NCBI GenBank assembly: GCA_012522585.1
Contig: JAAYKD010000069.1
Span: 1,602 to 65,601 of the forward strand
Reading direction: 5' to 3'
DNA: 64,000 bases
Source: Bacillota bacterium
GTDB lineage: Bacteria; Bacillota; JAAYKD01
The position numbers and the translations under genes are program-made. A model generated the notes under the pieces. The model saw nothing but the letters and a program-made list of their open reading frames with translations. It made no database searches and was not told the origin of the DNA. Shown here one piece after another: positions 5,399 to 52,640 of this stretch. Each line of letters begins with the position of its first letter. Positions within the stretch are counted from its first letter, which is position 1.

Positions 5399-5412
5399 TT
5401 TATTCCTCCTGA

Positions 5413-20439: not shown

Positions 20440-21441
20440 TTAAATTAAATCTTGCAAATAGGAATAGCCCTGGGCTTCCAACTCCTCGGCAGGAATGAAT
20501 CTCAAGGCTGCACTATTGATACAATAACGGTTGCCTGTAGGTGAAATTGGATCATTTTCAAAGAGATGGCCCAGATGGCTATCGCCACTGCGACTTCTGA
20601 CTTCTATTCTCTCCATGAAGAAGCTGCGGTCTTTTAAGTAAACAACGACATCCTGATCGATGACCCGAGCAAATGAGGGCCAACCGGAACCACTGGCAAA
20701 CTTATCCCGGGAGGAAAACAATGGTTCACCGGTTATTATATCAACATAGAGGCCTTTTTCAAAATGCTTATCGTATTGATTTTGATGAGGTGGTTCCGTG
20801 CCATTCTTCTGCGTCACCTCATACTGTAATTGAGTCAGCATCGATTTGATTTGTTCTTCTTCTGGCTTGGGATAATGACCGGGATCGATTAAGAAGGACT
20901 CGGCTTCTTTCAAGGCAGAGAAGGGAATGTGACAATATCCCCTGGGGTTTTTGTTCAAATAATCTTGATGATATTCCTCTGCATCAAAAAACCTCTGTAA
21001 AGGCTCCAGCTCCACATGGAAGCTTTTGCTTCTTCCTTTAACCACGGAAAAAATTCTTTCAATGGTGGGTAAATCTTCCAAATCAGAATAGTAAACACCA
21101 CTTTGATATTGACTGCCAAAATCAGGACCTTGATAATTTTTAGCTCCTACATCTATAACTTTAAAAAAAGTGAAGAGGATGCCATCTAAGGTGATTAGCT
21201 TGGGGTCATACTCCACTCGCACCGTTTCACGATAATCTGTATTTCCTCGTATGACCAAATTGTAGTTGGGAGTTATAGCTTGATTACCATTGGCATAACC
21301 GCTGCTGGTCGCTAGTACTCCGGGTAAATTCTGCATCAGCTTTTGAACTCCCCAAAAGCATCCGCCGGCTAAATAAATCCGCTTTATTCCAGGCTTCTCT
21401 TGATAGCCCTGATCAAGAATATCCCTTTGCATATTTTTCAC
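20440..21441 (-). CDS. msrAB: Bifunctional peptide methionine sulfoxide reductase MsrA/MsrB
   Basis: MsrA GCFWGVQ in the N-terminal half. Msr[10 protein letters not shown] and CINSAAL in the C-terminal half. Confidence 0.9.
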
Positions 21442-22754
21442 TCCTTTTCTATACGGCTTGCTCTGACGATCCCCTCTTCGACACTTTCAGCCTTCAGATC
21501 GAGCAAAAGCCCACCTATGGGCAAATCACTCTGCCAAGGCACTCTCACTCTTAAATATTCTGAACTATAGCCTTCAGCTTCCTGCTTTTTAGGATCGTAA
21601 CTTTCCAAAAGCACGGACAAGTTTCGGCCCAAAAAACCTTGGGCAAAATCCAATGCCATTTCATTTCCTAATTGACGCAGTTGCCGGCTGCGTTTTTCTT
21701 TTTCTTCTTTGACTACCTGAGGTTTCAAGGTAACTGCCTTAGTTCCGGCTCTGGCAGAAAATCGAAAGACATGCATGCGGGAAAATTCCAGCTCAGCGCA
21801 AAACTCGTAGGTAGATTCTGCATCCTCTTGGCTTTCCTGAGGAAAACCAACTATAACATCGGTGCTGATGGCTATATCGGGTATAGATGACCTGATATTT
21901 TTGACCAATTGACGATAATAAGCAGTATCGTAGCGTCTATTCATATTTTTCAAAACAGAATCACAGCCACTTTGCAGAGGGATATGGAGATGGCGACAAA
22001 TTTTATCTGTACTGGCCATCAGTTCAATCAATTCAGCATCCAGGTCGGTGGGCTCCACCGAAGATAAACGCACTCTTTCCAGTTTTGGAATTTTGATCAG
22101 TAATTTTAAAAGATAAGCTAAATTTTTCTTCTCCTGAAAATCCTGGCCCCAGGCTGAAAGATGAATCCCTGTGAGAACCAGCTCCTTATAGCCTGCCTCG
22201 GCGTATCTTTGAGCTTCCGCAACTATATTGGCAGCCTCGCGGCTTCTTTCAGGCCCTCTCAAATAGGGAATAATACAATAACTGCAAAAATTATTGCAGC
22301 CTTCCTGAATTTTAATCATCGGGCGAGTATAATTGGCGACTTCAAAGCCTTTCATCTCTTCAAACTCTTCATTATCTGCAAAGGGGCGAACTAAGTTTGA
22401 ATCCAACTCTTCCCCTTCAACCAAGAGCAGATTATCTAAAAACTCCTGTCTTTCCATTGTGCCGACTACATACTTGACTCCGGGGAACTGAGCCAGCTTG
22501 GTCGACTCCATCTGGGCATAACAGCCCATGACTATTATTTCCGCTTCTGGATTTCGACGGTGAGCTGCATTGATCTGCTGACGAGATTTAGCTGCTGCCT
22601 GAGCCGTGACAGCACATGTATGAACTATGTAAAGATCAGCTTGTTTATTCCAAGGCCCCAGATCATATCCGGCTACCTTCATCTGCTCCGCTATGGAATC
22701 GCTTTCATATTGATTGACTTTGCAGCCTAAGGTAAAAATAGCTGCTTTTTTCAT
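21438..22754 (-). CDS. mtaB: tRNA (t6A37) methylthiotransferase MtaB (radical SAM MTTase)
   Basis: MTTase N-terminal domain ([12 protein letters not shown]). Radical-SAM CNNFCSYC. Synteny prmA-rsmE-mtaB as in Bacillus (yqeT-U-V). Confidence 0.85.
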
Positions 22755-23500
22755 CTTTGAACCTCCATTTGCCCATATTGATATAAAGTGATGGCAGTTA
22801 AAACCACGGCAGCTGTTTCACTGCGCAGTATCCGGGGCCCTAAAGCAACGGCTTTTCCTCCTGCTTCGGTTAGAAGCTCTGCCTCTCTCTGGCTAAATCC
22901 CCCTTCAGGTCCAACAATCAGGGCAATCTTCTCAGAATTTTCATGGGCTTCATACAATTTTTTTAAATTTTTCTCTTTTTCCTCTTCCCAAGCAAAGACG
23001 ACTAAATCAAACTGCTGCAAAATATTGGCAAGTGAAATTAAATCTGTAGGTGGGAAAACTTGAGGAATCATCTGCCTTTGGGATTGTTCCGCTGCTTCCT
23101 TGACTATTCTGCGCCAGCGCTCCAGTTTTTTACTGTCCCTATCCTCATTATATTTGAAGACAGTGCGCTCTGATAATAAAGGCTGAATGGCTTTGACACC
23201 CAACTCCGTGCATTTTTGCAGGATATAAGGCCAACGATCCCCTTTGGGAATGGCTTGAATCAAGGTGATCTCGAGCTCTGGCTCTTTATTCTCAGTGAAG
23301 CTCTCGGTGATTTCTCCATAGGCTTGATTTTTACCCAGATAACTCAAAACCACCTGATGGGTTTGACCCTCAGGATCAATACAAAGAATGGAATTGCCCT
23401 TTCTCAAGCGCAAGACTCTGGTCGCTTGATGGGCAAATTCCCGATCAAAATTTATTTTATTGCCTCGTATTTGTTCATTGGTAATAAAAAATCTCTGCAT
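22751..23500 (-). CDS. rsmE: 16S rRNA (uracil1498-N3)-methyltransferase RsmE
   Basis: MQRFFI.. start overlapping the prmA stop (TAATG), with RBS AAGGA. The listed ORF starts 10 codons upstream, inside prmA. Confidence 0.85.
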   Translation of the reverse strand: MQRFFITNEQIRGNKINFDREFAHQATRVLRLRKGNSILCIDPEGQTHQVVLSYLGKNQAYGEITESFTENKEPELEITLIQAIPKGDRWPYILQKCTELGVKAIQPLLSERTVFKYNEDRDSKKLERWRRIVKEAAEQSQRQMIPQVFPPTDLISLANILQQFDLVVFAWEEEKEKNLKKLYEAHENSEKIALIVGPEGGFSQREAELLTEAGGKAVALGPRILRSETAAVVLTAITLYQYGQMEVQR

Positions 23501-24438
23501 TATTCCTTTTGGGCAATGATGCTCACCCATTCACCTTCCTCTTTAATTTCTAAAACTTCTAAGGACTCTTCCTTTATCATGAGAACGACTTCTTCTTTAC
23601 GGCTATTAATAATGCCTCCGGAAATGAATATTCCCTGAGGTAAGAGCAGTTCTCTGACCTGAGCTAGAAGGCTTAAAATTGCATCAGCCACAATATTGGC
23701 GACGATTAGATCCACAGGTTCCTTGACTTGATCTGCCAAATTACCTTCAATCAGATTCACTTTTCCTGTCAAACCATTCAATTTAAGGTTCTGACGGGCA
23801 CTGGCTATGGCTAAGGGGTCATTGTCCACAGCAATCAAATTTCCAGCTCCCAATTTGGAGGCTGCAATGGTTAAAATTCCAGAACCACAACCTATATCCA
23901 AAAAGCTAGCTCCTCTAGGCAAATACTCTTCCAGGGCCTGTAAGCACAATTTTGTGGTTGGATGCATGCCGGTGCCAAAGGCTAAACCCGGATCTAACAC
24001 AATTTCCAGATCATTTTGTTCTAAAACAAAGTCTTCCCAATGAGGCCTGATGACTAAACTTTTACCCAGGCGGAAAGGCTTATAATATTGCTGCCAAGCC
24101 GTGGCCCAATTCTCATCCTCCACCTGAAAAACTCTGACCCTAGAGGAACCGGCATCGAGGCCATAGCTGTTTAAAAGAGCTGCTTGAGCTTTGATCTCCT
24201 CAAAGAGAGCAGGGAATTTTTCACTATCCTGAAACCATCCCCTGACTTGGGCTTCAGCATCAGGGTCCACCGGGGGCTTTGCTTCCACATAATCCCAACT
24301 ACCTTTTTGATTTTCCACTTTAGTCAAGGCAAAAGGATCATCAATGGCTACTCCCTTAGCTCCCGCTTCCAACAAAATTGCTGAGGCTGCTTCTATAGCC
24401 TCATCTCTGACCGAGATGGTAATTTCCAACCAATTCAT
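23500..24438 (-). CDS. prmA: Ribosomal protein L11 methyltransferase
   Basis: SAM motif LDIGCGSGIL. Synteny after dnaJ. Confidence 0.9.
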   Translation of the reverse strand: MNWLEITISVRDEAIEAASAILLEAGAKGVAIDDPFALTKVENQKGSWDYVEAKPPVDPDAEAQVRGWFQDSEKFPALFEEIKAQAALLNSYGLDAGSSRVRVFQVEDENWATAWQQYYKPFRLGKSLVIRPHWEDFVLEQNDLEIVLDPGLAFGTGMHPTTKLCLQALEEYLPRGASFLDIGCGSGILTIAASKLGAGNLIAVDNDPLAIASARQNLKLNGLTGKVNLIEGNLADQVKEPVDLIVANIVADAILSLLAQVRELLLPQGIFISGGIINSRKEEVVLMIKEESLEVLEIKEEGEWVSIIAQKE

Positions 24439-24512: not shown

Positions 24513-25664
24513 TCACTTGAGAATATCCTTCATTTTGCTAAAAAACCCTTTGCCTTTAGCAATTTCTTCCTCACCCATGGAAAGAGCGAATTGGGTCAGG
24601 GCTTCTCTTTGTTTATCGTTTAACTTTTTGGGTATTTCAATCTTAACCTGAACTTGCATGTCGCCGCGGCCATAACCGCCTAAATTAGGGAAACCCTTAC
24701 CTCGCATCCGGAAATGAGTTCCAGACTCTGTGCCTGCGGGAATTCGCAAGGATGCTGTGCCTTCTAATGTCGTCACCTTGACCTCTTCGCCGATGACAGC
24801 TTGAGTAAAGGTAATGCTGGCATCTGTATAAATATCGTCACCACGACGCTCGAAATCCTTATGGGGTCTGACAGAAACCACGACATAGAGATCACCGTTG
24901 GGGCCATTGCGCTCTCCAGGCTCTCCTTCGCCATTTAAGCGCAGACGTCGGCCGTGTTCGATACCGGCAGGAACCTTGACTTTGACAGGTCTGGTTTTAC
25001 GGACCCGACCGCTGCCGCTACAAGTGGTGCAAGGTTCTTTGATGATCTGTCCCGTGCCTTGACAATTGCTACAGGTTCGGACACTCATCATATTGCCCAA
25101 CATGGTCTGCTGCACAGTTTGAACTTGACCGCTGCCATTACAGACCGGACAGGTTTCAACTTTACTTCCCGGTTTAGCACCGCTGCCCGAGCAAGTCGAA
25201 CAATGTTCTTCTCTTTGAATCTGTATTTCTTTTTCAACTCCGAAATAGCTCTCTTCAAAGGTTATGGTCAAATTGACCCTCAGATCGTTTCCTTTGACCG
25301 GGCCGGTATGTGCCCTTTGGCCCATCCCACCCATGCCACCGGAGAAAAATGTTTCGAATATATCGCTGATATCGCCAAAGCCACTGCCTCCAAAGCCGCC
25401 TCCATAGGAACCGTAGCCACCGCCCATTCCCTGTTCAGGATCAAAGGCCGCATGACCATATTGATCGTAAAGACTGCGCTTTTGGCTATCTGAGAGAACA
25501 TCATAAGCTTCTTTTACTGCTTTAAATTTTTCGGCAGCTGATGGGTCATCAGGATTGGCATCAGGATGTAGCTCCCGGGCCAATTTGCGATAGGCTTTTT
25601 TGATAGTCGCCTCGTCTGCATTTTTATCAACGCCCAGCAGCTGATAATAGTCTTGTTTTGCCAT
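24513..25664 (-). CDS. dnaJ: Chaperone DnaJ
   Basis: J-domain with HPD. G/F-rich region. Four CxxCxGxG zinc-finger repeats. Confidence 0.97.
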
Positions 25665-25727: not shown

Positions 25728-27548
25728 TTATTTTGGATCCTCCGGATCAATTTCATATTCTGCGTCGACGACGGTATCGCCATCTTCTGTTTTTTCTTCC
25801 TCAACAGGAGCTTCTCCTTGTTGGTCTTCGTAAATCTTTGAGCTCAAAGTGTATAGATGCTGGTTCAAAGCTTCAGATGCTTCTTTGATGGCTTCTAAAT
25901 TATCGCCTTTTAAAGCTTCTTTAACTTTTTCTATGGCTGCTTCAACTTCAGCTTTTTCTTCCGGACTCAATTTGTCGCCCAGATCATTGATGGTCTTCTC
26001 AGTTTGATAGACTTGGTTGTCAGCTTGGTTGCGCAGTTCAACTTCTTCTTTCTTTTCTTTGTCGGCTGCCGCATTGATTTCGGCTTCCTTGACCATGCGA
26101 TCGATTTCTTCATCGCTTAAATTAGTTGAAGCGGTGATGGTAATATGCTGTTCTTTACCGGTGCCTTGGTCTTTGGCTGTTACATTGACAATGCCATTGG
26201 CATCGATATCGAAGGTGACTTCAATTTTCGGAACACCTCTGGGTGCTGTAATGATTCCGTCCAACATGAATCTGCCTAAGGTTGTATTATGAGCTGCCAT
26301 TTCTCTTTCACCCTGCAAAACATGAATCTCTACAGAGGTTTGACCATCAGCAGCAGTGGAGAAAATCTGAGATTTCGAAGTGGGAATAGTTGTATTGCGA
26401 TCGATCAGACGGGTGAAGATTCCGCCTAAGGTTTCCAAACCTAAAGAAAGCGGAGTCACATCTAAGAGAACCATACCTTTAACGTCACCTGAGAGAACTC
26501 CGGCTTGAATGGCTGCACCTTCCGAAACAGCTTCATCAGGGTTGACTCCTCTAAAGGGTTCTTTGCCTAAGAACTTATCGATTGCTTCTTGCACGGCAGG
26601 TATTCTGGTTGAACCACCGACTAAAATAATTTTATCCACCTGGTTGGGGGTCAAATCGGCATCTTTTAAAGCCTGGCGAACAGGTCCCATGGTCTGTTCC
26701 ACTAGATCAGCAGTCATTGCATCGAATTTAGCCCTGGTCAAGGTCAGATCCAGATGTTTAGGACCGCTGGCATCTGCTGTGATAAAGGGTAAATTGATAT
26801 TAGCCGTGAGCAAACCGGATAATTCAATTTTAGCTTTTTCTGCCGCTTCTTTCAAGCGTTGCATGGCACTGCGATCCTGGGAGAGATCGATACCACTATC
26901 TTTTTTAAATTCTGCTACCAACCAATCGACGATTCTCTGGTCGAAATCGTCACCGCCTAAGCGGGTATTGCCATTGGTCGATTTAACTTCGACCAAGCCT
27001 TCACTGATTTCCAAAATGGAAACGTCGAAGGTGCCGCCGCCTAGGTCATAGACCATGATGACTTGATCCTCTTCTTTATCCATGCCAAAAGCTAAGGCTG
27101 CAGCTGTAGGCTCGTTGATGATCCGCATAACTTCTAAACCAGCGATGGCTCCTGCATCCTTGGTAGCCTGTCTTTGTGAGTCGTTAAAATAAGCAGGCAC
27201 TGTAATTACAGCTTTATCAACTTTAGTACCCAAATAAGATTCGGCATCTTCTTTGAGTTTGCGTAAGATCATGGCAGTTATTTCTTGTGGGGTATAGGTT
27301 TTATCGTCGATGGTAACTTTATAATTGCTGCCCATCTCCCTTTTGATTGAACTGATCGTATGATCCGGATTGGTGACCGCTTGTCTTTTGGCAATCTGCC
27401 CGACCATACGCTCATCGCCTCTAAATGCCACAACAGAAGGGGTTAGACGACTACCTTCGGCATTGAGGATGACTGTAGGTTGTCCGCCTTCCATGACGGA
27501 AACCACAGAGTTCGTTGTTCCAAAGTCAATTCCAATTATTTTGCTCAT
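25728..27548 (-). CDS. dnaK: Chaperone DnaK (Hsp70)
   Basis: [18 protein letters not shown], and a C-terminal EEDK tail. The ORF track begins at GTG. The likely start is ATG (MSKIIG..) with a GGGAG RBS. Confidence 0.97.
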
Positions 27549-27574
27549 TTTATACACTCCCGTTTCTTTTTATC

Positions 27575-28141
27575 TTAATTTTTTATTATATGTGCAACCT
27601 GTACCATAGAGGCACGGATTACTTTCTCTTTTAACATATAGCCTTTGCGCAAAACCATGGTCACTGTATTGTCTTCTACCCCTTCAGGTGCGGGACAGGT
27701 TGTTACAGCTTCATGAAAATTAGGATCGAAGGGCAAATTTAAAGCTTCAATCTCCTGCAATCCTTCATTGGTCAACAGGTTGATCAGCTGACGGTAGATC
27801 AATTCAACCCCGGCTAAATAGCTTTCTTCATATTGACTATCCGTTTCAGCCGCTTCAATTGCTCTTTCAAAATCATCGATAATTGGCAGCATCTGGGTAA
27901 TCAATTTCTGAGCTGCATATTCGCTCAATTCTTCTTTTTCCCGGGCTGAGCGCCTGCGGAAATTGTCAAAATCCGCTTGCAGACGCATTGTTCTGGCTTC
28001 GGCTATTTTTAATTTTTCAGCAAATTCTTCTAAAATGTCTACTTCTTCTTGAAGCTCCTCCTCGGGAGGCATAACCTCAGGGGTTATTGCTTCTTTTTCT
28101 TCGACTTGAGAATTTTTATCATCCTTTTTCCTTAGAAACAA
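27575..28141 (-). CDS. grpE: Nucleotide exchange factor GrpE
   Basis: Acidic N-terminus and a GrpE C-terminal beta domain. Lies between dnaK and the chaperonin gene. Confidence 0.9.
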   Translation of the reverse strand: MFLRKKDDKNSQVEEKEAITPEVMPPEEELQEEVDILEEFAEKLKIAEARTMRLQADFDNFRRRSAREKEELSEYAAQKLITQMLPIIDDFERAIEAAETDSQYEESYLAGVELIYRQLINLLTNEGLQEIEALNLPFDPNFHEAVTTCPAPEGVEDNTVTMVLRKGYMLKEKVIRASMVQVAHIIKN

Positions 28142-28195: not shown

Positions 28196-29734
28196 CTAGT
28201 ATTCAGGGCTTTGATCTTTCTTTTTGATAATGGTATCAATGCGTAAAATTGCTTCAGCTACCTCACCGGCAGCTTTTAAAGCGTGTAATTTTACTAAAGT
28301 CGGATCTAAAATACCCTGCAAACTCAAATCTTTAACTTCGCCGCTATCGCAATCAATTGTGAGATTTTCATTTTTCTCTTCAGATTGAGCAGCTAAAACT
28401 TCTTCGATCTTCTCTAAAGGATTATATCCAGCATTATGGATAATTTGAGCTAAGGGACGTTTTAAAGCTTCTACCACAATATCCAAACCATAGGCAGACA
28501 TGCCTTTGAGTTGGTCTCTCAAGGGAGCTATGTGCCGAGCTGTGGCGATTTCCACTGCTCCACCTCCGCTGACCACTCCACCTTTGACCGCAGCCTGCAC
28601 AGCTGAAGCTGCATCCCGAGCGATTCTTTCTCGCTCTCCGACCACGGCTGATGTGGAAGCACCTACCAGAATAGTAGCTGTCTTCTGCCCTTGTCCTCCC
28701 AAAATTCGGAGATAACCCAATTTTTTATCATGAATAACCGAATCCGCTTGGCCTAAAAGACCCTTTAACTCAGTCAACTCTCTTTTTAAAGCATTTCTTT
28801 TAATGGGTTTGGCTCCGCTATGTTCTGCTATTTGACGCAGACTGCGCCTCAAGACCCTGGTCACTACCATGATACCAGCATCTGTCAAAACCTCCTCAGC
28901 TAAAGGATGGAGATTTTTATCAGTTAAAATGAGGTCAACTTCCAATTGGAGAATTCTTTCCAGCATCTGCTTAAACTCATTCTGCAATTCCATATAGCGG
29001 GCAAAGCCACTTTCGGTTGTCAGGGCCTCATCGTCTATTTCCTCAGGCTCTAGTGCGTCATCGATTAAAAGTATGCGAGCCTTTTCCACTTTTTCCGGCA
29101 TATCCTTGTTTAAAGGCTCTTTCTCTAAGATGATGCCAGCAAACACCTCGTTTTCTGCACCCTCTTTGGCCAAAATCAATTGGGAGAGTTTAAAATCTTC
29201 TTCTTCCAATTTTTCTTTTCCAACCAAAAGTGCTGCTTGCACAGTCAGATCGGCAATGTCTTCATGTTCACGACCGGCTACCAGAGCTATTTGTTTTAAA
29301 ATCTTCTCATCTAAAGTGAGCATAGCTTGACTGGATTGAGTGATATAACTCCTAGCCTCTTGCAGGCCAAAGCGCATACCATCGATAATTCGAGCCACCG
29401 GAACGCCCCGGTAGACATGTTCAGCACCTGCTGAAATCAAGGCATTGGCCATAATGGTGGCTGTGGTCGTGCCGTCGCCAATCTCCTCCTGTTGGGCTTT
29501 AGCAACATTGATTAAAAGCTGAGCTGCCGGATGAGTCACATCCATTTTTTCTAAAATGGTCACGCCGGCGTTGGTGATCAAAACATCGCCGTAGCGATCA
29601 ACCAGCATGGTATCCAAGCCTTTGGGACCAATAGTCCCTTCTACAGCCGCTGCAACAGCTCTGATCGCCGCCGCATTGTTGGCCAAGGCTCCGCTTCTCT
29701 CATCCATTTCTCGATTGGGTGCACTATTTGCCAT
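28196..29734 (-). CDS. Group II (thermosome/CCT-type) chaperonin subunit, 512 aa, embedded in the hrcA operon
   Basis: TCP-1/thermosome signatures LGPKGLDTMLVD, GDGTTTA (rather than GroEL-type motifs), and an apical/equatorial domain layout. AAGGAG RBS. Only 14 bp separate it from the hrcA stop. Confidence 0.8.
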   Translation of the reverse strand: MANSAPNREMDERSGALANNAAAIRAVAAAVEGTIGPKGLDTMLVDRYGDVLITNAGVTILEKMDVTHPAAQLLINVAKAQQEEIGDGTTTATIMANALISAGAEHVYRGVPVARIIDGMRFGLQEARSYITQSSQAMLTLDEKILKQIALVAGREHEDIADLTVQAALLVGKEKLEEEDFKLSQLILAKEGAENEVFAGIILEKEPLNKDMPEKVEKARILLIDDALEPEEIDDEALTTESGFARYMELQNEFKQMLERILQLEVDLILTDKNLHPLAEEVLTDAGIMVVTRVLRRSLRQIAEHSGAKPIKRNALKRELTELKGLLGQADSVIHDKKLGYLRILGGQGQKTATILVGASTSAVVGERERIARDAASAVQAAVKGGVVSGGGAVEIATARHIAPLRDQLKGMSAYGLDIVVEALKRPLAQIIHNAGYNPLEKIEEVLAAQSEEKNENLTIDCDSGEVKDLSLQGILDPTLVKLHALKAAGEVAEAILRIDTIIKKKDQSPEY

Positions 29735-29748
29735 ATTCGTTTTCTCCT

Positions 29749-30777
29749 TTATCCCTTGTTAAAAATATCGGTCAACAACTTGCTAACTTCTCTGACTGCT
29801 GTCATGGCTCTGGCATAATCCATTCTGGTTGGCCCTAAAACGCCAACCCAGCCCACCGGAGCACCATTCCATCTATACAGAGCAGTGACTAAACTACAAT
29901 TTTCAACTTCTTCCAATTGGTTTTCAGAACCAATGGTGACCTGAACATTGTCGGTGAATTGCTTTTCACCTACTAAAGAAAGCATTGCTTCGCGATGATC
30001 TAAAAGTTTTAAAATACTACGAACCCTATTGACATCCTGAAATTCAGGTTGCACTAAAATGCGCGCCGTCCCGCCTAAATAAATATCAGCGGTACTCTCA
30101 CCCAACAGAAGTTCTTGGATCAATTCAACTACTTGGTCGAATTGTTCGATGCGGCGACCAATATCCTGGCGCACATTGAGAATTCCACTTTTTAACATCT
30201 GATTCCAGGTTACATTATAGAAATTACGGTTAATATAATCGCTAATACCATCTAAATCGCTTTGCTCTATATCATCGGGTAAATTGATCATCCGGTTGGC
30301 GACAAGACCATTGTCGGATACCACAACTACCAGAGCTTTACCTTTTTGAACTTCCATCATATGAAGTTTTTGTAAACGACTACTGCCTGCTTGGGGCCCG
30401 GAGGCCAAAGCCATGTAATCGGTCAGTGAGGATAAGAGGTGAGCTGCTTCTTGAATCACATTTTCTAAGACTTGAGCCTGTTGATGATATATTTGTTTGA
30501 TAGCTTGAACTTCCTGCTCACTTAGGGTTGCTTCATCTAAAAGATTGTCAACGTAAAAACGATAACCACTTTCTGAGGGAATACGTCCGGCTGATGTATG
30601 AGGCTGGTGTAGAAAACCCATTTCTTCTAAATCGGCCATTTCATTGCGAATTGTTGCGGCACTGATATCCATCAGATAGCGTCGTGCTATCGTTCTGGAG
30701 CCCACAGGTTCGGCTGTGAGTATGTAGTCGCGCACAATTGCTTGCAGTATCTTTTGTTTCCGTGCATCCAAACTCAC
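29749..30777 (-). CDS. hrcA: Heat-inducible transcription repressor HrcA
   Basis: N-terminal wHTH (ILQAIVRDYI..EPVGSRTIA). HrcA family length. A CIRCE element lies upstream. Confidence 0.93.
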   Translation of the reverse strand: MSLDARKQKILQAIVRDYILTAEPVGSRTIARRYLMDISAATIRNEMADLEEMGFLHQPHTSAGRIPSESGYRFYVDNLLDEATLSEQEVQAIKQIYHQQAQVLENVIQEAAHLLSSLTDYMALASGPQAGSSRLQKLHMMEVQKGKALVVVVSDNGLVANRMINLPDDIEQSDLDGISDYINRNFYNVTWNQMLKSGILNVRQDIGRRIEQFDQVVELIQELLLGESTADIYLGGTARILVQPEFQDVNRVRSILKLLDHREAMLSLVGEKQFTDNVQVTIGSENQLEEVENCSLVTALYRWNGAPVGWVGVLGPTRMDYARAMTAVREVSKLLTDIFNKG

Positions 30778-30810
30778 GCAAATCCCCTGCCTTTTAAAAA
30801 AATATAGTTG

Positions 30811-30837
30811 TTAGCACTCGACCTTGCAGAGTGCTAA
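30811..30837. promoter_or_regulatory. CIRCE operator (HrcA binding site)
   Basis: Perfect inverted repeat TTAGCACTC-N9-GAGTGCTAA, located 34-60 bp upstream of the hrcA start. Confidence 0.95.
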
Positions 30838-30910
30838 CAACTCAAAGATACACCTTTTTTCTCTATTTGTCAAGGGGTTGCCAGGCAAAAGTCAGGAAAG
30901 GTCAAATAGG

Positions 30911-32065
30911 TCAGGGCAGAAACTTAATCATCACCTGATTGCTCACAGGTATGCCCTTTTCTGTCAGGCGAAAGACCTGGCCCTCAACCTCTTCAGCCAA
31001 ACCCGAAGAGATGGCCCAGTCTATCGCTTTTTCGTATTTAACCAAGAAATCAATTTGAAACCGCTCTTTCATTTTTTCGTAGCTGATGCCTTCTTGCAGG
31101 CGCAAAGCCATGATGATAGTTTCAGTTTCTTCTTGCTGGGGCGTAATCTTCTCAATTTCAGAAAAAACAGGTTGAAAATCCTCAGTCCAGGTTTTTATAT
31201 ACTCCCCTAAATCTAGAGTATTGCCTCTTCGCTCACCCTGCCAATAGGAAAAAGCTCCCACACCTAGGCCTAGATACTGCTGATTGCGCCAGTAGATAAG
31301 ATTGTGTTTCGACTCAAAACCTGGTTGAGCAAAATTTGCTATTTCGTAATGGCTATAATTTTCGGCTGCCAAGAGAGCTACTGCCATTTCAAGCATCTGG
31401 ACCTGCTCTTCCTCAGAAGGTAGTTCCAGCCGGCCTTGCTTTGCCAACTCAGCGAAGACCGTTCCCTCAGAAACCATCAGATTATAGAGAGAAAGATGAT
31501 TGGGTTTAAATTTTAAAACTAAACGAAGGCTTTCCTGCCATTGCTCCAAACTCTGTTGGGGCAAACCATAGATAAAATCCAAACTGAAATTTTCTACTTT
31601 CGCTCTTTTTAAATCCGCAATTGCCTCAACGGCCCTTTCACGATTATGGGTCCTGCCCATCTTTTCCAATAAACCCTGATCAAAACTCTGAACGCCTAAA
31701 GAAAATCGATTGACTCCTAAATCTTTAAGCTTAACAATCTTTTCAAAAGTCAAACTCTCAGGATTACACTCGATGGTAATCTCAGCAACGGGATTTATCT
31801 TGAATTTTTTAAACAAAGCCTGGAAAATTTCTTCCAGCTCTTCAATTTTTAAAAGAGAAGGAGTGCCGCCGCCGATGAAAACCGTATCAAAGACCTGGCC
31901 TGCATCCATGCTTTGACTATAATAATCCATCTCTTTGAGCAAAGCTTTAAGATACTCTCCAGTTTGATCATGATCACTTGGCAGAGAAAGAAAATCACAA
32001 TAAAAGCACTTTTGTTGGCAAAAAGGGATGTGGATATAGAGACCTGTCATAATTTCTTCCTCCAA
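30911..32065 (-). CDS. hemW: Radical-SAM heme chaperone HemW (HemN-like, oxygen-independent coproporphyrinogen oxidase family)
   Basis: CQQKCFYCDF radical-SAM motif. The GGGTPS block. Conserved lepA-hemW-hrcA synteny. Confidence 0.88.
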   Translation of the reverse strand: MEEEIMTGLYIHIPFCQQKCFYCDFLSLPSDHDQTGEYLKALLKEMDYYSQSMDAGQVFDTVFIGGGTPSLLKIEELEEIFQALFKKFKINPVAEITIECNPESLTFEKIVKLKDLGVNRFSLGVQSFDQGLLEKMGRTHNRERAVEAIADLKRAKVENFSLDFIYGLPQQSLEQWQESLRLVLKFKPNHLSLYNLMVSEGTVFAELAKQGRLELPSEEEQVQMLEMAVALLAAENYSHYEIANFAQPGFESKHNLIYWRNQQYLGLGVGAFSYWQGERRGNTLDLGEYIKTWTEDFQPVFSEIEKITPQQEETETIIMALRLQEGISYEKMKERFQIDFLVKYEKAIDWAISSGLAEEVEGQVFRLTEKGIPVSNQVMIKFLP

Positions 32066-32113: not shown

Positions 32114-33916
32114 TTATTTCTCGATTTTCAAAACTGCCATAAAGGCGTCTTGGGGTAATTCTACGTTTCCGACTAGGCGCATTCTCTTCTTACCCTCTTT
32201 TTGCTTTTCTAAAAGTTTACGTTTACGAGAAACATCTCCCCCGTAGCATTTGGCCAAAACATCTTTACGATAAGCTGCGATATTCTCTCTGGCTATGATC
32301 TTATTACCTAAAGCTGCTTGAATTGGTATTTCAAATTGTTGTCTTGGTATGACCTTGCGCAGACGCTCACATAGAGCCCTGCCTCTGGGAACGGCCTTTT
32401 CTCTATGGACGATAACCGCCAAAGCATCAATTGCATCACCGGCAACTAAAATATCCATCTTGACCAAATCGGCTGCTTTATACTCGGACATTTCATAATC
32501 TAAGGAAGCATAACCCCGGGTCCGTGATTTCAATTGGTCGAAGAAATCATAGATAATCTCGGAAAGAGGGAGTTCATAGAGCAACAAAACTCTATGGGGA
32601 TCTAAGTACTCCATGTGGTCAAAGACTCCTCTTCTCTCTATAACCAAATCCATAACTGTTCCTATATATGTATCGGGAGTCAAAATCGTAGCTTTCACAT
32701 AGGGTTCTTCAATTATTTCGATTTCATTGGGTTCAGGAACTTGAGCCGGATTATCTAAGGTCAGGACTTCACCGTTGGTCTTGGTCACCCGATAGATAAC
32801 CGTCGGAGCAGTTGTGATAATATCCAAATTATAATGCCTGTCCAAACGTTCCTGCACAATTTCCAGATGCAATAGGCCTAAAAAGCCACAGCGGTAGCCG
32901 AAGCCCAAGGCTGCCGATGTTTCCGTTTCATAGGAAAGAGAAGCATCGTTTAACTGTAGTTTTTCTAAAGCATCTCTTAAAGCTGGGTAATCTGAAGTTT
33001 CAGTGGGATAGATACCACAAAAGACCATAGGAGTGGCCTGACGATAGCCGGGTAAAGGCTCCTGGGCAGGTCGATCGGCATCGGTGATTGTATCTCCAAC
33101 CCGGGTATCCTGAACAGTTCTGATGGTTGCAGCCAAATAGCCGACTTCTCCGGCTCTCAATTCATCTAAAGGCTGCATACCTGGCCGGAATGTACCGACC
33201 TCTAAAACTTCATAGACCTTATCGGTAGCCATCAACAAAATCCGCATTCCAGCTTTCAAAGTTCCATGCATGACCCTGATATAACAGATTACCCCACGAT
33301 AATTATCATAATGAGAATCGAAAATCAGAGCTTGCAAAGGTTCTTCTTCATCGCCTTGGGGAGCTGGAATCAAATTGACGATCTGTTCTAAAATCTCCGG
33401 GATGCCTGTTCCATCTTTAGCTGAAGCTAAAACAGCATCGCTACAATCAATGCCTATGACCTCTTCAACTTCCTTTTTAACCCTCTCCGGATCGGCGCTG
33501 GGCAGGTCAATTTTATTGATCACCGGAATAATTTCCAAGTCCTGTTCCAAGGCCAGATAAACATTGGCTAAAGTCTGAGCTTCTATACCTTGAGTAGCAT
33601 CAATAACCAGAATAACACCTTCGCAGGCGTTTAAAGAACGAGAAACTTCATAGCTAAAATCCACATGTCCGGGAGTATCTATCAAGTTCAATTGATAGGT
33701 CTGGCCATCCTTAGCCTGATATTTCATACGCACCGGTTTGAGCTTTATGGTGATGCCTCTTTCTCTTTCCAAATCCATGGAATCCAAAATCTGTTTTTCC
33801 ATTTCCCTGGAACTCAAAGTCTCGGTATGTTCGATTAGCCTGTCGGCTAGAGTTGATTTTCCATGGTCAATATGGGCAATAATACAAAAATTGCGAATGT
33901 TTTCCATGTGGTTCAC
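32114..33916 (-). CDS. lepA: Elongation factor 4 (LepA)
   Basis: GTPase G1 [17 protein letters not shown], and the LepA-specific C-terminal domain. 600 aa. Confidence 0.97.
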
Positions 33917-33942: not shown

Positions 33943-34581
33943 TTAACGGCGCATGCCGCTGCTCAGCAGACTGAGCAAATAATCCAATTGAACATCTATG
34001 GCTTGTTCATCTCGACTGCCCAAAAAATTGCTCTTAGGCAAGGCAAAGTCTGACAAGTTTAACATAACATGGTTGATCAAGCGGCCCATGACCTCAATAG
34101 GCAAATCCCTACGCAACTCACCTCGGGCTATGGCTTGTTCAATCATGTGAATATAATAATCCAAACCTTCTATGGAATAGTGTTTGGCTATCTCTATTTG
34201 CAATTCTTCCGGCTCACTGCGCACCTGGCGCAAAAAGGCAGCTTCTATAGGGTGAGCATCAGCAAAATCTAAGATCAATCTGCCTTGAACTTTCAGAAGA
34301 ATAAAAAAATCCAAGCGACCGACAGGTCTGATTTCCTGAAATCGCTTTTCAGCAAATTCAGCTTGTACAGCCGCCACTTTAGTCAGGGTACGCAGATAGA
34401 GTTCCAATTTATCCTTAAAATGATGGTAAAAACTACCTTTGGAAACTTTGGCCTTTTTTAATATCTCATTGATCGAGGCTGTCTGATAGCTGTTCTCAGC
34501 AAACTCTTCGATTGCTTCCAGATAGAGCTGTTTTTCATTTTTCAAACCTTCAGGTCTAGGAGCCACTGCAAACCCTCCCAA
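33943..34581 (-). CDS. TetR/AcrR family transcriptional regulator
   Basis: HTH region GSFYHHFKDKLELY. Confidence 0.8.
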   Translation of the reverse strand: MGGFAVAPRPEGLKNEKQLYLEAIEEFAENSYQTASINEILKKAKVSKGSFYHHFKDKLELYLRTLTKVAAVQAEFAEKRFQEIRPVGRLDFFILLKVQGRLILDFADAHPIEAAFLRQVRSEPEELQIEIAKHYSIEGLDYYIHMIEQAIARGELRRDLPIEVMGRLINHVMLNLSDFALPKSNFLGSRDEQAIDVQLDYLLSLLSSGMRR

Positions 34582-34897
34582 TAATTTAAAATTTACAGTC
34601 CATTATAACACTTTAATCTCAGTAATGCCAGAGCCGCCTTTTTAATTCAAAGATTTTTCTTCCATCAAGCCTTGACAAAGCGCTTCTTTTTCTTTACTCT
34701 AACTAAGGCTTTGTTCATATAAGGCCCCTTGCTCTAGAAAATTACTGAATGTGACAAATTTTCCAAGCAAAAAAATCTATCTAAATGACATTTTCAACTT
34801 GCCAAAGATTATATTACATGTTACAATTACTGATGTTATTTATCCAATGAATACTGCTGCCAAGCATTTATACGGATAGAACCCGTGAACGAAGGAG

Positions 34898-35170
34898 GTG
34901 AAACGCATGGCCAACAGTAGATCTGCTTTAAAGCGTGTGAGAATCACCGCCAAGAAAACTGCGCGCAATAAAATTCTTCGATCCAAAGTGAAAAATTCTA
35001 TCCGCAGACATAAGCTAGCTATTTTAAATGAAAGCGAAGATGTTGATACAACATACAAACAAGCGATGAGCCAAATCGACCGCGCCGTTTCCAAAGGGAT
35101 TATGCATAGAAATACAGCAGCCCGGAAGAAATCCCGTTTAACCAAAGCATATAATAAGGTCAGCGTTTAA
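34898..35170 (+). CDS. rpsT: 30S ribosomal protein S20
   Basis: MANSRSALKRVRITAKKTARNK.. is a canonical S20 N-terminus. Confidence 0.95.
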   Translation: MKRMANSRSALKRVRITAKKTARNKILRSKVKNSIRRHKLAILNESEDVDTTYKQAMSQIDRAVSKGIMHRNTAARKKSRLTKAYNKVSV

Positions 35171-48118: not shown

Positions 48119-49294
48119 ATGCAGTATCAAGGTTTAGTCATCTCTGTACCTAAGGAGATTATGCCTGGTGAAAAACGTGTTGCAGCGACACCGGAAACAG
48201 TCAAAAAACTCGTGTCCCAAGGAGCCACCCTATTAGTAGAAGAAAGTGCAGGTTTAGGTTCTTATTTTTCTGATGCAGAATATGTGGAAGCCGGTGCTAC
48301 TATTGTCGGTGATGTAGAAGAATTATTCTCCAAAGCCAATATCATATTCAAAGTAAAAGAGCCTCAATTCAACCATCAGGTAGGAAAACATGAAGTGGAT
48401 CTGATGAAAGCGGAGCAAGTTCTGATAACCTTCTTACATCCAGCAGCTCCTGCCAACCACGAAATGATTCAAAATTTGACGGCTAAAGGTGTAACGGCTT
48501 TGACTTTAGATGGAATACCTCGTATTTCCAGAGCCCAAGCTATGGACGCTTTGACTTCCATGAGCACTGTTGCCGGCTATAAATCAGTCTTGATGGCAGC
48601 TAACCGAGTACCAAAATTCCTGCCCATGATCGGCACTGCCATCGGTATGATGCCACCGGCCAATGTAACTGTCTTAGGAGCAGGAGTTGCCGGTTTACAG
48701 GCTATCGCCACAGCTAAACGCTTAGGCGCCGTGGTCTATGCTGCAGATATCCGACCGGAAGCTGCCGAGCATGCTAAGAGCCTAGGAGCAAGAATCGTGG
48801 AAACTGGTGTTCCGGCCGAAATTGCTATCGGTGAAGGTGGCTATGCCAAAGCCCTGCCCCAAGAATGGATTGTCAAAGAGCAAACTGCTCTCTACGATAC
48901 CATCATCAATTCAGATATCGTCATAGCAACTGCTTTAGTTCCCGGAAGAATGGCTCCCACCTTAATTACCGAAGAGATGGTCAAAGCCATGAAACCCGGC
49001 TCAGCCATCGTCGACGTTTCCATTGACCAAGGAGGCAACTGTGCTCTGACAGTGGGCGGCGAATTAATCGAACGCCACGGCATCAGCATCGACGGAACTA
49101 AGAATATTCCCGGTATGGTAGCCACCAGTGCAACCAGTATGTTCTCTAAAAATATAGTCAACTTTGTTGCCAATATCGTCAAAGACGGAAAGATTATCAT
49201 CGACACAAACGATGAAATTACCGATTCTACCCTGGTCTGTCAAAATGGAAAACTGGTTCACGCCGGTACCCGTGAGGCTTTAGGCCTTAATTAA
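48119..49294 (+). CDS. pntAA: NAD(P) transhydrogenase subunit alpha part 1 (dI, NAD(H)-binding)
   Basis: Alanine-dehydrogenase-like dI fold with GAGVAGLQA Rossmann motif and the N-terminal PKEIMPGEKRVAATPE signature. Confidence 0.92.
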   Translation: MQYQGLVISVPKEIMPGEKRVAATPETVKKLVSQGATLLVEESAGLGSYFSDAEYVEAGATIVGDVEELFSKANIIFKVKEPQFNHQVGKHEVDLMKAEQVLITFLHPAAPANHEMIQNLTAKGVTALTLDGIPRISRAQAMDALTSMSTVAGYKSVLMAANRVPKFLPMIGTAIGMMPPANVTVLGAGVAGLQAIATAKRLGAVVYAADIRPEAAEHAKSLGARIVETGVPAEIAIGEGGYAKALPQEWIVKEQTALYDTIINSDIVIATALVPGRMAPTLITEEMVKAMKPGSAIVDVSIDQGGNCALTVGGELIERHGISIDGTKNIPGMVATSATSMFSKNIVNFVANIVKDGKIIIDTNDEITDSTLVCQNGKLVHAGTREALGLN

Positions 49295-52600: not shown

Positions 52601-52640
52601 CAAAGCATCTTTAGAAATCCTTCTCGAAGAATTGAAATAA
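49608..52640 (+). CDS. pntB: NAD(P) transhydrogenase subunit beta carrying four tandem dIII (NADP(H)-binding) domains (1010 aa)
   Basis: Residues 1 to about 290 form the multi-TM dII domain. They are followed by four repeats of about 180 aa, each with PGYGMALAQAQ, AIHPVAGRMPGHMNVLLAE, GANDVVNPAANTAEDTPIYGMP and NPLYEM. Confidence 0.9.
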   Translation: MEPIYIIISIVLAALVLLGIKLMSSPKTAVQGNLISAFSMLAAVILVLWTNNILSLPLLWAAIAIGSIIGYVLGMKVTMIQMPQVVALLNGLGGGASLLVAAAEILSNFNQMDAFSKVSGQLALIVGGITLSGSMIAAAKLDRRMSQRPVVLKGHNILANGSLVIMIVATFLTLLDNSPYIFLSFLILILSLAYGYLFSVRVGGADMPITISLLNSFSGLAGAIVGFTIGEPLLVAVGAIVGASGLILTQIMCKAMNRSLGSVLSGGTSKPSSKPKVVPAKVEEPVLTEPIKEEVAKSLGDLLKEAQRVIIIPGYGMALAQAQNEVKALTDALIAQGKQVEFAIHPVAGRMPGHMNVLLAEVDVPYELMREMDDINPLFAETDVAIVVGSCDVVNPAANTAEDTPIYGMPVLSVENAKHVIVCNLDTNPGYSGVDNPLYEMEHVRLLLGDAKATLKQLLAEFKEEKKSEPQEIEEEKTPSSPSYLELLHQGEKVIFVPGYGMALAQAQSLVKQLADALEEKGKEVKFAIHPVAGRMPGHMNVLLAETDVPYDKLWEMDDINPLFPETDIVIIVGANDVVNPAANTAEDTPIYGMPVLSVENAKHVIVCNLDKSPGYSGVDNPLYEMDNVTLLLGDAKESLTQLIDQFKQGPIAKEPEPLAQGTDTLTTVLAKPERVIIVPGYGMALAQAQTQVKEIYETLEAKGTEVEFAIHPVAGRMPGHMNVLLAEVDIPYEKLREMDDINPLFPETDLVIIVGANDVVNPAANTAEDTPIYGMPILNVDQAKHIVVCNLDQSPGYSGVDNPLYEMDNVTLLLGDAKDSLNKILDIFKAEPSAAPEAEPTSVAQTSVLAAAKKVIIVPGYGMALAQAQTLVKSVYDALEAKGAEVEFAIHPVAGRMHGHMNVLLAEVDVPYEKLREMDDINPLFPETDVVIVVGANDVVNPAANTAEDTPIYGMPILNVDQAKHIIVCNLDRSPGYSGVDNPLYDMENVTLLLGDAKASLEILLEELK
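50526..52640 (+). repeat. Intragenic tandem repeat: four units of about 540-560 bp (starts about 50526, 51084, 51630, 52170), each encoding one dIII domain
   Basis: Self-alignment of the pntB sequence. Copies differ mainly at third-codon positions. Confidence 0.9.

Follow-up and report, generated by a model that had tools for sequence, protein, structure and literature searches.

A Group III chaperonin with alanine at position 56, encoded in the hrcA-dnaK operon of an uncultured Bacillota bacterium

The gene located between hrcA and grpE in the window (the whole stretch of 64,000 nucleotides of Bacillota DNA that was analysed) and called cpn here encodes an ordinary Group III chaperonin, which is neither GroEL nor a true Group II thermosome. 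It was assigned to Group III because it clusters with Ch-CPN, the Carboxydothermus hydrogenoformans chaperonin, because it carries a loop deletion with Arg155 and a lid deletion with characteristic hydrophobic residues, and because its predicted fold matches the structures 5x9v and 5x9u. Very probably, cpn occupies the second place in a class I heat-shock operon, hrcA-cpn-grpE-dnaK-dnaJ(-prmA...), controlled by HrcA through CIRCE (Table 1), and its product is a lid-closing chaperonin that refolds proteins.

Group III chaperonins were reportedly published by Techtmann and Robb in 2010. The family, its dnaK-operon context, crystal structures and a resurrected ancestor are already in the literature and have little weight as discovery; the replacement of Asp56 by alanine is the only part of the present finding that could repay bench work.

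Table 1. Position of the operon genes and of the associated sites in the window
Feature	Position	Strand	Description
Group III chaperonin gene (cpn)	28196..29734	minus	512-aa ORF; Pfam Cpn60_TCP1, E-value 3e-110
RBS AGGAG for cpn	29744..29748	minus	read from sequence; within the 14-nt hrcA-cpn gap
Codon GCC (Ala56)	29567..29569	minus	aligned with Ch-CPN Asp56 and GroEL D52
hrcA, heat-inducible repressor binding CIRCE	29749..30777	minus	342 aa, GTG start; TIGR00331 and Pfam HrcA
grpE	27575..28141	minus	188 aa, TTG start; Pfam GrpE, 8e-47
dnaK (Hsp70)	25728..27557	minus	Pfam HSP70, E-value 3e-247
dnaJ (Hsp40)	24513..25664	minus	Pfam DnaJ, DnaJ_CXXCXGXG, DnaJ_C
prmA, rsmE-like, mtaB-like	21438..24438	minus	Pfam PrmA, Methyltrans_RNA, UPF0004 and Radical_SAM
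Candidate sigma-A-type promoter	30845..30873	minus	TTGACA (30873-30868), 17-nt spacer, TATCTT (30850-30845)
CIRCE operator	30811..30837		TTAGCACTC-N9-GAGTGCTAA, 0 mismatches
Candidate CtsR-box-like direct repeat	30890..30906	minus	TTTGACCTTTCCTGACT; 16 nt upstream of the -35 hexamer

Alanine 56 in the ATP-binding site

An et al. (2017; PMC5635000) describe Asp56 of Ch-CPN as a conserved catalytic residue and propose that it is one of two acidic residues by which the attacking water is activated; the equivalent residue of GroEL, D52, is in contact with the gamma-phosphate (PMC8440773). The window protein has the second aspartate of this two-aspartate ATPase site (Asp56 and Asp373 in Ch-CPN, D52 and D398 in GroEL), as Asp374, together with the GDGTTT motif, whereas the first is replaced by alanine. 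The site is common to all three chaperonin groups and does not define Group III, therefore the Group III membership of the protein stands. A search of a collection of papers for the D52A and D398A mutants of GroEL and the D64A and D393A mutants of the thermosome yielded nothing usable beyond the statement on the GroEL D52 contact.

Aspartate occupied position 56 in all nine Group II references and in E. coli GroEL, and the NDG motif was present in 119 of 120 Hadarchaea thermosomes. The sequence ITNAGVTI was found in 25 of the 120 clusters closest to the window protein, the remainder having ITNDGVTI or a close variant. In an alignment of 128 sequences (120 homolog clusters, six further Group III sequences and two thermosome outgroups), Ala56 was present in 26 sequences, every one of them Group III. 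Grouping of the Ala56 sequences in one clade was rejected (0/100 bootstraps in a neighbour-joining tree of the 128 sequences); three lineages, each with its own support, are fixed for Ala56 (8, 16 and 2 sequences). The other ATP-site residues named by An et al. (Asn55, Asp87, Thr89-91, Arg155, Asp374 and Gly391) were the same as in Asp-type proteins, and a search of the alignment for changes that co-vary with Ala56, whether compensating or degenerating, revealed none beyond a few conservative, clade-specific ones.

Because one of the two aspartates proposed to activate water is an alanine, the ATP hydrolysis step may be slower in the window protein than in Ch-CPN. We also put forward, tentatively and from sequence comparisons, the less than even possibility that the Ala56 lineages, with at least three separate origins or retentions, are 'slow-timer' lid-bearing chaperonins, co-expressed with DnaK, in which hydrolysis would be much slower and closure longer. 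It is unlikely that the substitution cripples the ATPase of this Group III protein to the point that it would serve chiefly as an ATP-binding holdase that stays closed for long, or as a modulator of HrcA, and not cycle as a foldase. The proposed role of Asp56, the D52 contact and the fixation of alanine in three lineages would suit such a protein, and as the Group III ring closes upon ATP binding rather than hydrolysis (PMC5635000), slow hydrolysis would prolong the closed state; however, the rest of the ATP site is kept, nothing compensates or decays beside Ala56, and the high conservation of the whole protein argues for a working ATPase cycle. We retain the reading of a cycling, lid-closing refolding chaperonin. 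The recurrent change from Asp56 to alanine is a natural experiment on the share of the first catalytic aspartate in setting the pace of a chaperonin that bears a lid and is closed by ATP binding.

Operon structure and predicted control by HrcA

The cpn ATG lies 14 nt past the hrcA TAA and 9 nt downstream of AGGAG, and 54 nt separate the cpn stop codon from grpE downstream; the original prediction had correctly read both the 512-residue open reading frame between hrcA and grpE and the spacing between the hrcA stop and the cpn start. The hrcA product scored 343 bits against the equivalog model TIGR00331 (cut-off 197) and matched Pfam HrcA with an E-value of 7e-61, and the grpE product scored 160 bits against NF010738 (cut-off 137). 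The true start of dnaK is likely the ATG at position 27548, which gives 606 residues, as in the JGI gene call for the identical contig. All these genes are on one strand; prmA and the rsmE-like and mtaB-like genes correspond to the distal portion of the Bacillus-type dnaK gene string, and prmA follows dnaJ in related loci as well.

Of 79 related genome loci, many of which belong to Paenibacillus, 77 have the order hrcA-cpn-grpE, and a perfect CIRCE precedes hrcA in 74 of these 77 operon loci. The gene had been described as inserted in the operon; in view of these loci, Group III genes canonically sit between hrcA and grpE, cpn is no recent insertion and Group III is not very rare. In the survey of An et al., all members were in the DnaK operon "with one exception" (PMC5635000).

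The candidate sigma-A-type promoter scored 10/12 in the promoter scan, and CIRCE starts 8 nt past its -10 hexamer. In six loci that share only 58-71% chaperonin identity, the -35 hexamer is invariant and the -10 hexamer nearly invariant. Promoter and CIRCE are kept among relatives while the surrounding sequence varies, and within CIRCE only the spacer varies, the arms being invariant. The single perfect CIRCE reported in the original prediction was recovered at the same place, and it is the sole match in the 64 kb even when three mismatches are allowed (0.02 expected by chance). Two sequence features of a class I regulon, a CIRCE at the promoter and an encoded HrcA, are present, and the locus is a data point for strong conservation of operon architecture, promoter and CIRCE.

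A candidate CtsR box lies upstream of the -35 hexamer and not over the promoter. The operator looked for was the tandem heptad (A/G)GTCAAA-NAN-(A/G)GTCAAA (PMC3842655); the direct repeat matches its reverse complement, TTTGACY-NTN-TTTGACY, at 12 of 14 positions, a score reached by none of 400 random 160-nt windows. Its conservation is limited to the close clade: it is kept in three close relatives (L001, L002 and L003), and a fourth locus (L067) has one change, in the last base.

These elements suggest the following mode of action. In unstressed cells, HrcA bound to the single CIRCE 3' of the promoter would repress the whole transcript, including hrcA itself; when unfolded proteins build up, HrcA would become inactive and the chaperonin would be made with the Hsp70 system (HrcA/CIRCE mechanism, PMC3842655). 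By homology, the chaperonin would form two stacked eight-membered rings, and ATP binding would shut each chamber with the built-in two-helix lid, without GroES, for the refolding of clients, which DnaK and DnaJ may pass to it, as An et al. propose. Ch-CPN and the ancestral protein ACIII are hexadecamers made of two rings of eight that show ATP-dependent closure and refolding with no GroES (PMC5635000, PMC12696368). Co-transcription, heat induction, the 16-mer, ATP-driven closure and co-operation with DnaK are thus expected here by analogy with other Group III members and with Bacillus-type HrcA systems.

In the cpn-grpE gap, no terminator-like site was found and folding was no better than that of shuffled sequence (z = +1.3), with no stable hairpin; an Rfam scan gave no match within the operon. 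The B. subtilis dnaK operon has internal promoters, and an internal promoter serving cpn or grpE would be compatible with the consensus scans, which weak promoters could escape. Nevertheless, expression of cpn apart from CIRCE and HrcA, from an internal promoter or constitutively, with an operon position devoid of regulatory meaning, is decidedly improbable: the hrcA-cpn gap holds just a ribosome-binding site, the scan of this gap and its vicinity on the coding strand found no promoter-like site, and the tight linkage of hrcA and cpn is kept in all 77 operon loci. Control of cpn by HrcA is the reading that we prefer.

Family assignment, structure and distribution

The original prediction had used thermosome/CCT motifs to separate the protein from GroEL. 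Its thermosome-like character was borne out by profile searches; the motifs, on the other hand, cannot tell chaperonin groups apart because LGPKG and GDGTTTA are also present in aligned E. coli GroEL (sequence verified against PDB 4pkn), and the version beginning with LGPKG that had been quoted was incorrect, the motif of the window chaperonin being TIGPKGLDTMLVD. Motif-based grouping was therefore dropped, and profile, phylogenetic and indel evidence was used.

The Pfam Cpn60_TCP1 match covers residues 27-506. NCBIfam thermosome models matched the full length of the protein, with 304 bits for TIGR02339 (cut-off 671), 302 for NF041083 (cut-off 400) and 292 for NF041082 (cut-off 450). GroEL models matched mainly the C-terminal third, at 44-172 bits against cut-offs of 352-1041; TIGR02348 gave 144 bits (cut-off 582) in two partial stretches, and NF009487 gave 172 bits with residues 351-509 as its best stretch. 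In a phmmer search of the PDB, 9rwq scored 598 bits over the full length and 5x9u (Ch-CPN) 418 bits. Natural thermosomes did not exceed 239 bits, and 9rwp, a reconstructed Group II ancestor, reached 274 bits. In a separate comparison with representatives at the 50% identity level, full-length ones scored between 586 and about 350 bits (at least 39% identity), and thermosome-like matches were mostly at or below 250 bits. The protein is 41-79% identical to Group III members, 29-37% to thermosomes and 27% to E. coli GroEL.

The phylogeny that had been proposed as a check was constructed by neighbour joining (39 sequences, 514 columns, 200 bootstraps, GroEL outgroup). The window protein fell within a Group III clade of 29 sequences, which includes Ch-CPN and ACIII, with 99% support, and Group II formed a clade with 99.5% support, Group II being sampled narrowly (Hadarchaea, three PDB sequences and one ancestral reconstruction, no CCT). 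The PDB sequences were added because a search seeded with a Hadarchaeum thermosome returned only Hadarchaea-like proteins (at least 78% identity).

In Group III, the alpha6-alpha7 loop is six residues shorter than in Group II, Arg155 of Ch-CPN contacts the gamma-phosphate, and the lid consists of two helices with a four-residue deletion relative to Group II and with, in Ch-CPN, Leu237, Phe243, Tyr246 and Phe253 (PMC5635000). Compared with all Group II references, the window protein has a six-column gap in the nucleotide-sensing loop after residue 153; it has Arg155, which is present in 29/29 Group III and 0/9 Group II sequences. Its lid has gaps of three and one residues relative to Group II, after residues 237 and 251, and keeps Leu238, Phe244, Tyr247 and Phe254. 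In its apical domain, the protein aligns with thermosome lids and not with GroEL apical insertions. In the AF2 monomer model (pLDDT 87.7), the two lid helices span residues 235-239 and 241-263, the tip contains no strand, and the best Foldseek matches were 5x9v_A and 5x9u_A (TM 0.88-0.92, rmsd 2.6-2.8), followed by thermosomes and CCT (TM about 0.8).

The short length of the protein had been taken as a sign of a reduced lid. A four-residue lid deletion does exist and is family-wide, but the lid is not specially reduced: the 512 residues result from family-wide deletions and short tails. The median length of Group III is 527 residues, from which the window protein departs at the tails only, and what else is missing relative to thermosomes is accounted for by the nucleotide-sensing loop (six residues), by further small gaps and by the tails at both termini.

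The Group II assignment of the original prediction is replaced by membership of the separate Group III clade, the 304 bits obtained being set against a thermosome cut-off of 671. That cpn is a true Group II thermosome gene, acquired fairly recently from an archaeon into the dnaK operon, is very improbable: thermosome models are the best NCBIfam matches and the overall fold is like that of thermosomes and CCT, but these scores are far under the cut-offs of 400-671 bits, identity is lower to thermosomes than to Group III, the two clades are separate, the Group II nucleotide-sensing loop and extra lid residues are missing, and Paenibacillus, Armatimonadota and other Bacillota carry a chaperonin gene in this slot too. 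Recent horizontal transfer of cpn was also rejected on composition, its GC (0.454) and GC3 (0.404) being those of the neighbouring genes. Because the slot is filled in these various bacteria, any archaeal transfer would be ancient and family-wide, and an origin of the entire Group III clade by ancient archaeon-to-Firmicute transfer is discussed in the literature (PMC5635000, PMC12696368).

A divergent, GroES-dependent GroEL (Group I) paralog, which the matches of GroEL models to the C-terminal equatorial region and the shared GDGTTT and LGPKG-type motifs might evoke, can be dismissed, since these matches are in two stretches and below cut-off, identity to E. coli GroEL is low, the apical domain has thermosome-type lid alignment and all best fold matches are Group III or Group II proteins; the earlier statement that the protein is not GroEL holds. 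No groEL paralog was found within the 64-kb window.

For the Group III chaperonin that we consider cpn to encode, Carboxydothermus had rightly been cited as a precedent, Ch-CPN being in the same clade, but the description of such proteins as rare and confined to a few anaerobic Firmicutes was an understatement. An et al. listed 195 Group III paralogs (PMC5635000), and we found homologs in many Paenibacillus species, in Negativicutes, in Armatimonadota and in many metagenome clusters; NCBI nr already includes a protein identical to the window chaperonin. Group III chaperonins are also common well outside thermophilic anaerobes; dozens of Paenibacillus species, for instance, have them.

Comparison with known systems

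Thermosomes and CCT resemble Group III chaperonins in their built-in helical lid, independence from GroES, eight-fold rings and three-domain fold, and share GDGTTT and the distal catalytic aspartate with the window protein. They differ from it by a nucleotide-sensing loop that is six residues longer and contains a lysine, by long tails, and by four more lid residues, which form a beta-strand. Group II genes are found in archaea, outside hsp70 operons. Group II rings close on hydrolysis and not on ATP binding (PMC5635000).

Ch-CPN (PDB 5X9U/5X9V; PMC5635000), the Group III prototype, is encoded in the same hrcA-grpE slot, and is the best structural match of the window protein, with which it shares the shortened loop with Arg155, the four-residue lid deletion, the lid hydrophobic residues and the equivalent of its Asp373. 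The two proteins are only 41% identical, the window protein being closer to Negativicutes/Desulfotomaculum-type members (about 60%) and to Bacillota MAGs (69-79%), and Ch-CPN has Asp56 where the window protein has alanine. In contrast with the Ch-CPN host, the source of the window is an uncultured Bacillota MAG of 43% GC with no evidence of thermophily.

ACIII (PDB 9RWQ), the highest-scoring PDB sequence, is an ancestral Group III chaperonin with double octameric rings and ATPase activity (PMC12696368). It is a reconstructed sequence with aspartate at position 56, whereas the window protein is natural and has alanine. The PDB molecule name for 9RWQ reads ACII; the paper assigns it as ACIII.

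Finally, the window operon resembles the B. subtilis-type class I operon hrcA-grpE-dnaK-dnaJ in its perfect CIRCE consensus, in the hrcA equivalog as first gene, in the sigma-A-like promoter directly 5' of CIRCE and in its flanks, lepA-hemW upstream and prmA-rsmE-mtaB downstream. It differs by the additional chaperonin gene between hrcA and grpE, and may hold an additional CtsR-like box 5' of the -35 hexamer.

Family membership and lid of the chaperonin

The 512-aa open reading frame between hrcA and grpE (cpn) encodes an ordinary member of the named, structurally characterised Group III chaperonin family, in its canonical context. Pfam placed the protein in the general Cpn60/TCP-1 family only. 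The NCBIfam thermosome models matched it over the full length at 292-304 bits, far under their cut-offs of 400-671, and profile searches gave no assignment to GroEL, whose models matched two partial stretches (44-172 bits); by these scores the protein is neither GroEL nor a bona fide thermosome. Group III was described as a monophyletic bacterial clade, with 195 paralogs at that time, whose genes all lie within the DnaK operon with one exception; its members have a built-in lid for closure, lack the nucleotide-sensing loop, and carry Arg155 and conserved hydrophobic residues at the lid tip (An et al., 2017; PMC5635000).

The best sequence match in the PDB was 9rwq (598 bits), followed by the Carboxydothermus hydrogenoformans chaperonin Ch-CPN (5x9u/5x9v, 418 bits), the reconstructed Group II ancestor 9rwp (274 bits) and natural thermosomes (239 bits or less). 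According to its paper, 9rwq is the resurrected Group III ancestor ACIII (PMC12696368). The PDB molecule name, 'Ancestral Group II Chaperonin (ACII)', is at odds with this and misleading for automated annotation; the 9RWQ sequence groups with Group III in our tree.

This neighbour-joining tree (514 columns) was rooted on E. coli GroEL (sequence verified against PDB 4pkn). On the Group III side it comprised the window protein, Ch-CPN, ACIII, named members of the group, and translations of genome loci from Paenibacillus and Armatimonadota; on the other side were five thermosome-type sequences, two PDB thermosomes and the Group II ancestor ACII. Such a phylogeny had been suggested with the original prediction of a CIRCE-controlled, Carboxydothermus-like group II chaperonin distinct from GroEL. 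It separated a Group III clade containing the window protein (99% support) from a Group II clade (99.5%); the general idea and the exclusion of GroEL were thus right, but the assignment to group II was not.

All testable Group III-specific features are present in the window protein. First, it lacks 6 residues of the nucleotide-sensing loop and has Arg155, as found in 29/29 Group III and 0/9 Group II sequences. Second, the alignment shows a 3+1-residue deletion in the lid, together with Leu238/Phe244/Tyr247/Phe254, Asp374 and GDGTTT. Third, an AlphaFold2 model computed from 57 homologs (mean pLDDT 87.7), which provides the lid modelling also suggested earlier, has a two-helix lid, and Foldseek ranked 5x9v_A and 5x9u_A (TM 0.88-0.92, rmsd 2.6-2.8 Å) above every thermosome and CCT subunit.

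The length of 512 aa had been taken to indicate a reduced lid. The lid is slightly reduced (4 residues), but most of the 46 residues missing relative to a full-length thermosome are elsewhere: 9 at the N-terminus, 6 in the nucleotide-sensing loop, 4 after residue 191, 4 in scattered small gaps and 19 in the C-terminal tail. This slight reduction is the known Group III lid and no peculiarity of cpn. Within the 120 closest clusters, Group III proteins range from 505 to 545 aa (median 527), and the window protein is shorter than the Thermosinus Group III protein only by 2 residues at the N-terminus and 15 at the C-terminus.

Operon layout and expression signals

Coordinates of features in the window
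Feature	Position	Strand
Tandem glycine riboswitch	882-1097	plus
Pyridine-nucleotide-disulphide oxidoreductase gene	1423-2820	
Glycyl-radical enzyme gene	3047-5416	
rsmE-like and mtaB-like genes	downstream of prmA	minus
prmA	23500-24438	minus
dnaJ	24513-25664	minus
dnaK (ORF as mechanically called)	25728-27557	minus
grpE	27575-28141	minus
cpn	28196-29734	minus
Codon of residue 56 of cpn	29567-29569	minus
hrcA	29749-30777	minus
CIRCE	30811-30837	
Promoter-like site	30873-30845	
CtsR-like direct repeat	30906-30890	minus
HemW-like radical-SAM gene	30911-32065	minus
lepA	32114-33916	minus
Interval between rpsT and lepA	33943-35170	
PntA/alanine-dehydrogenase-like gene	48119-49294	
1010-aa PntB-like ORF	49608-52640	plus

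ORF coordinates, sequence and a CIRCE scan confirmed the locus as first described, with its 14-nt gap between the hrcA stop codon and the cpn start and its single perfect CIRCE; the sole slip of observation was a motif given as LGPKG..., which actually reads IGPKGLDTMLVD. An AGGAG lies 9 nt 5' of the cpn ATG. A sequence scan found no terminator-like site in the hrcA-cpn or the cpn-grpE gap, and the 54-nt spacer between cpn and grpE was no more stably folded than shuffled sequence (z = +1.3); this layout gives good support to the predicted transcription of cpn together with hrcA and the Hsp70 genes. The mechanically called dnaK ORF starts at a GTG, giving 609 aa; within the stretch 27548-27557 the ATG three codons downstream is the likelier start, since JGI calls a gene of 606 aa on the identical contig.

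The 133-nt region between the HemW-like gene and hrcA contains the CIRCE (TTAGCACTC-N9-GAGTGCTAA, 0 mismatches) and, ending 8 nt before it, a promoter-like site, TTGACA-17-TATCTT. No second CIRCE was found in the 64-kb window even with three mismatches allowed (chance expectation 0.02). The regulatory region was aligned with those of five related loci, with an identity of only 58-71% between the chaperonins, and with one copy of the same sequence from another sample. The -35 hexamer and both CIRCE arms were invariant and the -10 nearly so, amid a variable CIRCE spacer and flanks, a pattern as expected of a working promoter and operator.

A direct repeat, TTTGACCTTTCCTGACT, lies 16 nt upstream of the -35 hexamer of hrcA. 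At 12/14 positions it agrees with the CtsR operator consensus, the heptad repeat read as its reverse complement, a score reached by none of the random 160-nt windows from the loci; its conservation is confined to the close clade of the window. Some Firmicutes are known to have dnaK operons under both CtsR and HrcA, and a CtsR element is mentioned in the L. plantarum hrcA operon (PMC3842655). The operon described here may be under similar dual control, although this candidate box lies upstream of the promoter.

HrcA acts as a repressor at CIRCE; its activity is governed by the availability of chaperonin, and an accumulation of unfolded proteins lifts the repression (PMC3842655). Besides the observed gene order, operator, promoter conservation, family membership and predicted fold, the following working can be proposed. 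HrcA would hold the operon repressed until inactivated by stress, and the chaperonin would then be produced in step with GrpE, DnaK and DnaJ and assemble as a 2x8 complex. ATP binding would close the chambers by the built-in lid and clients would be refolded, possibly after being handed over by DnaK, a link that has been proposed but not yet demonstrated (An et al., PMC5635000; PMC5220055).

Distribution of the family and other features of the window

Peptide seeds from the window protein recovered 79 loci from species-representative genomes, whose hosts include about 60 species of Paenibacillus as well as Armatimonadota and various MAGs of Bacillota. The order hrcA-cpn-grpE was found in 77/79, with dnaK-dnaJ next in nearly all, and a perfect CIRCE precedes hrcA in 74. 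As the slot is shared and the GC and GC3 of cpn equal those of neighbouring genes, the position of cpn is an old, family-wide trait, and not the rare insertion initially supposed. The two remaining loci encode genuine thermosomes, one from a Hadarchaeum and one (L079, contig JAHYJW010000002.1, 5926-7566) from a contig labelled Patescibacteria. The latter is a typical 546-aa thermosome of the Group II clade with a TrmB-like regulator nearby and neither hrcA nor dnaK, and either an archaeal origin of its contig (DPANN, for example) or mis-binning is possible; a homolog likewise labelled Patescibacteria (P0089) is a normal Group III protein.

Protein searches found relatives of about 60% identity in Thermosinus, Lucifera, Methylomusa, Desulfotomaculum, Pelotomaculum, Zhaonella and others. 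In a 50%-identity representative library the family comprises about 26 full-length clusters (586 down to 350 bits); scores then fall through a few intermediate and fragmentary matches, and thermosome-like proteins mostly score 250 bits or less. For each of two double-length representatives, P0267 (1057 aa) and P0355 (1047 aa), the match to the chaperonin falls into two stretches, which suggests tandem-fused subunits. The identical 512-aa sequence is present in NCBI nr ("chaperonin" of a Firmicutes MAG), and, with the same neighbours, on a JGI metagenome contig and in an SRA assembly.

Elsewhere in the window, the profile of the transhydrogenase beta-subunit PntB matched four stretches of a 1010-aa ORF (1338 bits), which looks like a duplication or fusion of PntB; this ORF adjoins a PntA/alanine-dehydrogenase-like gene. 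The glycine riboswitch has two aptamers (58.9 and 40.5 bits) and lies upstream of the oxidoreductase gene. The glycyl-radical enzyme gene suggests an anaerobe. Only a TetR-family regulator gene lies between rpsT and lepA, where Bacillus subtilis has gpr and spoIIP, a hint that the organism may be non-sporulating.

Ala56 in the ATP site

Residue 56 of the window protein is Ala (ITNAGVTI), where Ch-CPN has Asp56. Asp56 and Asp373 have been named as conserved catalytic residues, which as a pair activate the attacking water (An et al., PMC5635000), and the equivalent D52 of GroEL contacts the gamma-phosphate (PMC8440773). In our alignment Asp occupies this position in all Group II references and in E. 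coli GroEL, and the NDG motif is present in 119/120 Hadarchaea thermosomes. Ala56 was found in 25/120 of the closest homolog clusters and in five genome loci (L001, L002, L003, L067 and L078). These sequences form three separate groups (bootstrap 192/200, 93/200 and 200/200), one nested beside an Asp-type sequence; the change is thus recurrent or has repeatedly reverted. The remaining ATP-site residues are unchanged in Ala56 proteins, and comparison of the alignment revealed no evident compensating substitution. The Ala56 variant is the sole aspect that might merit experiment: a slower ATP hydrolysis step is a reasonable prediction, and the D52A mutation of GroEL lowers ATPase activity without abolishing it.
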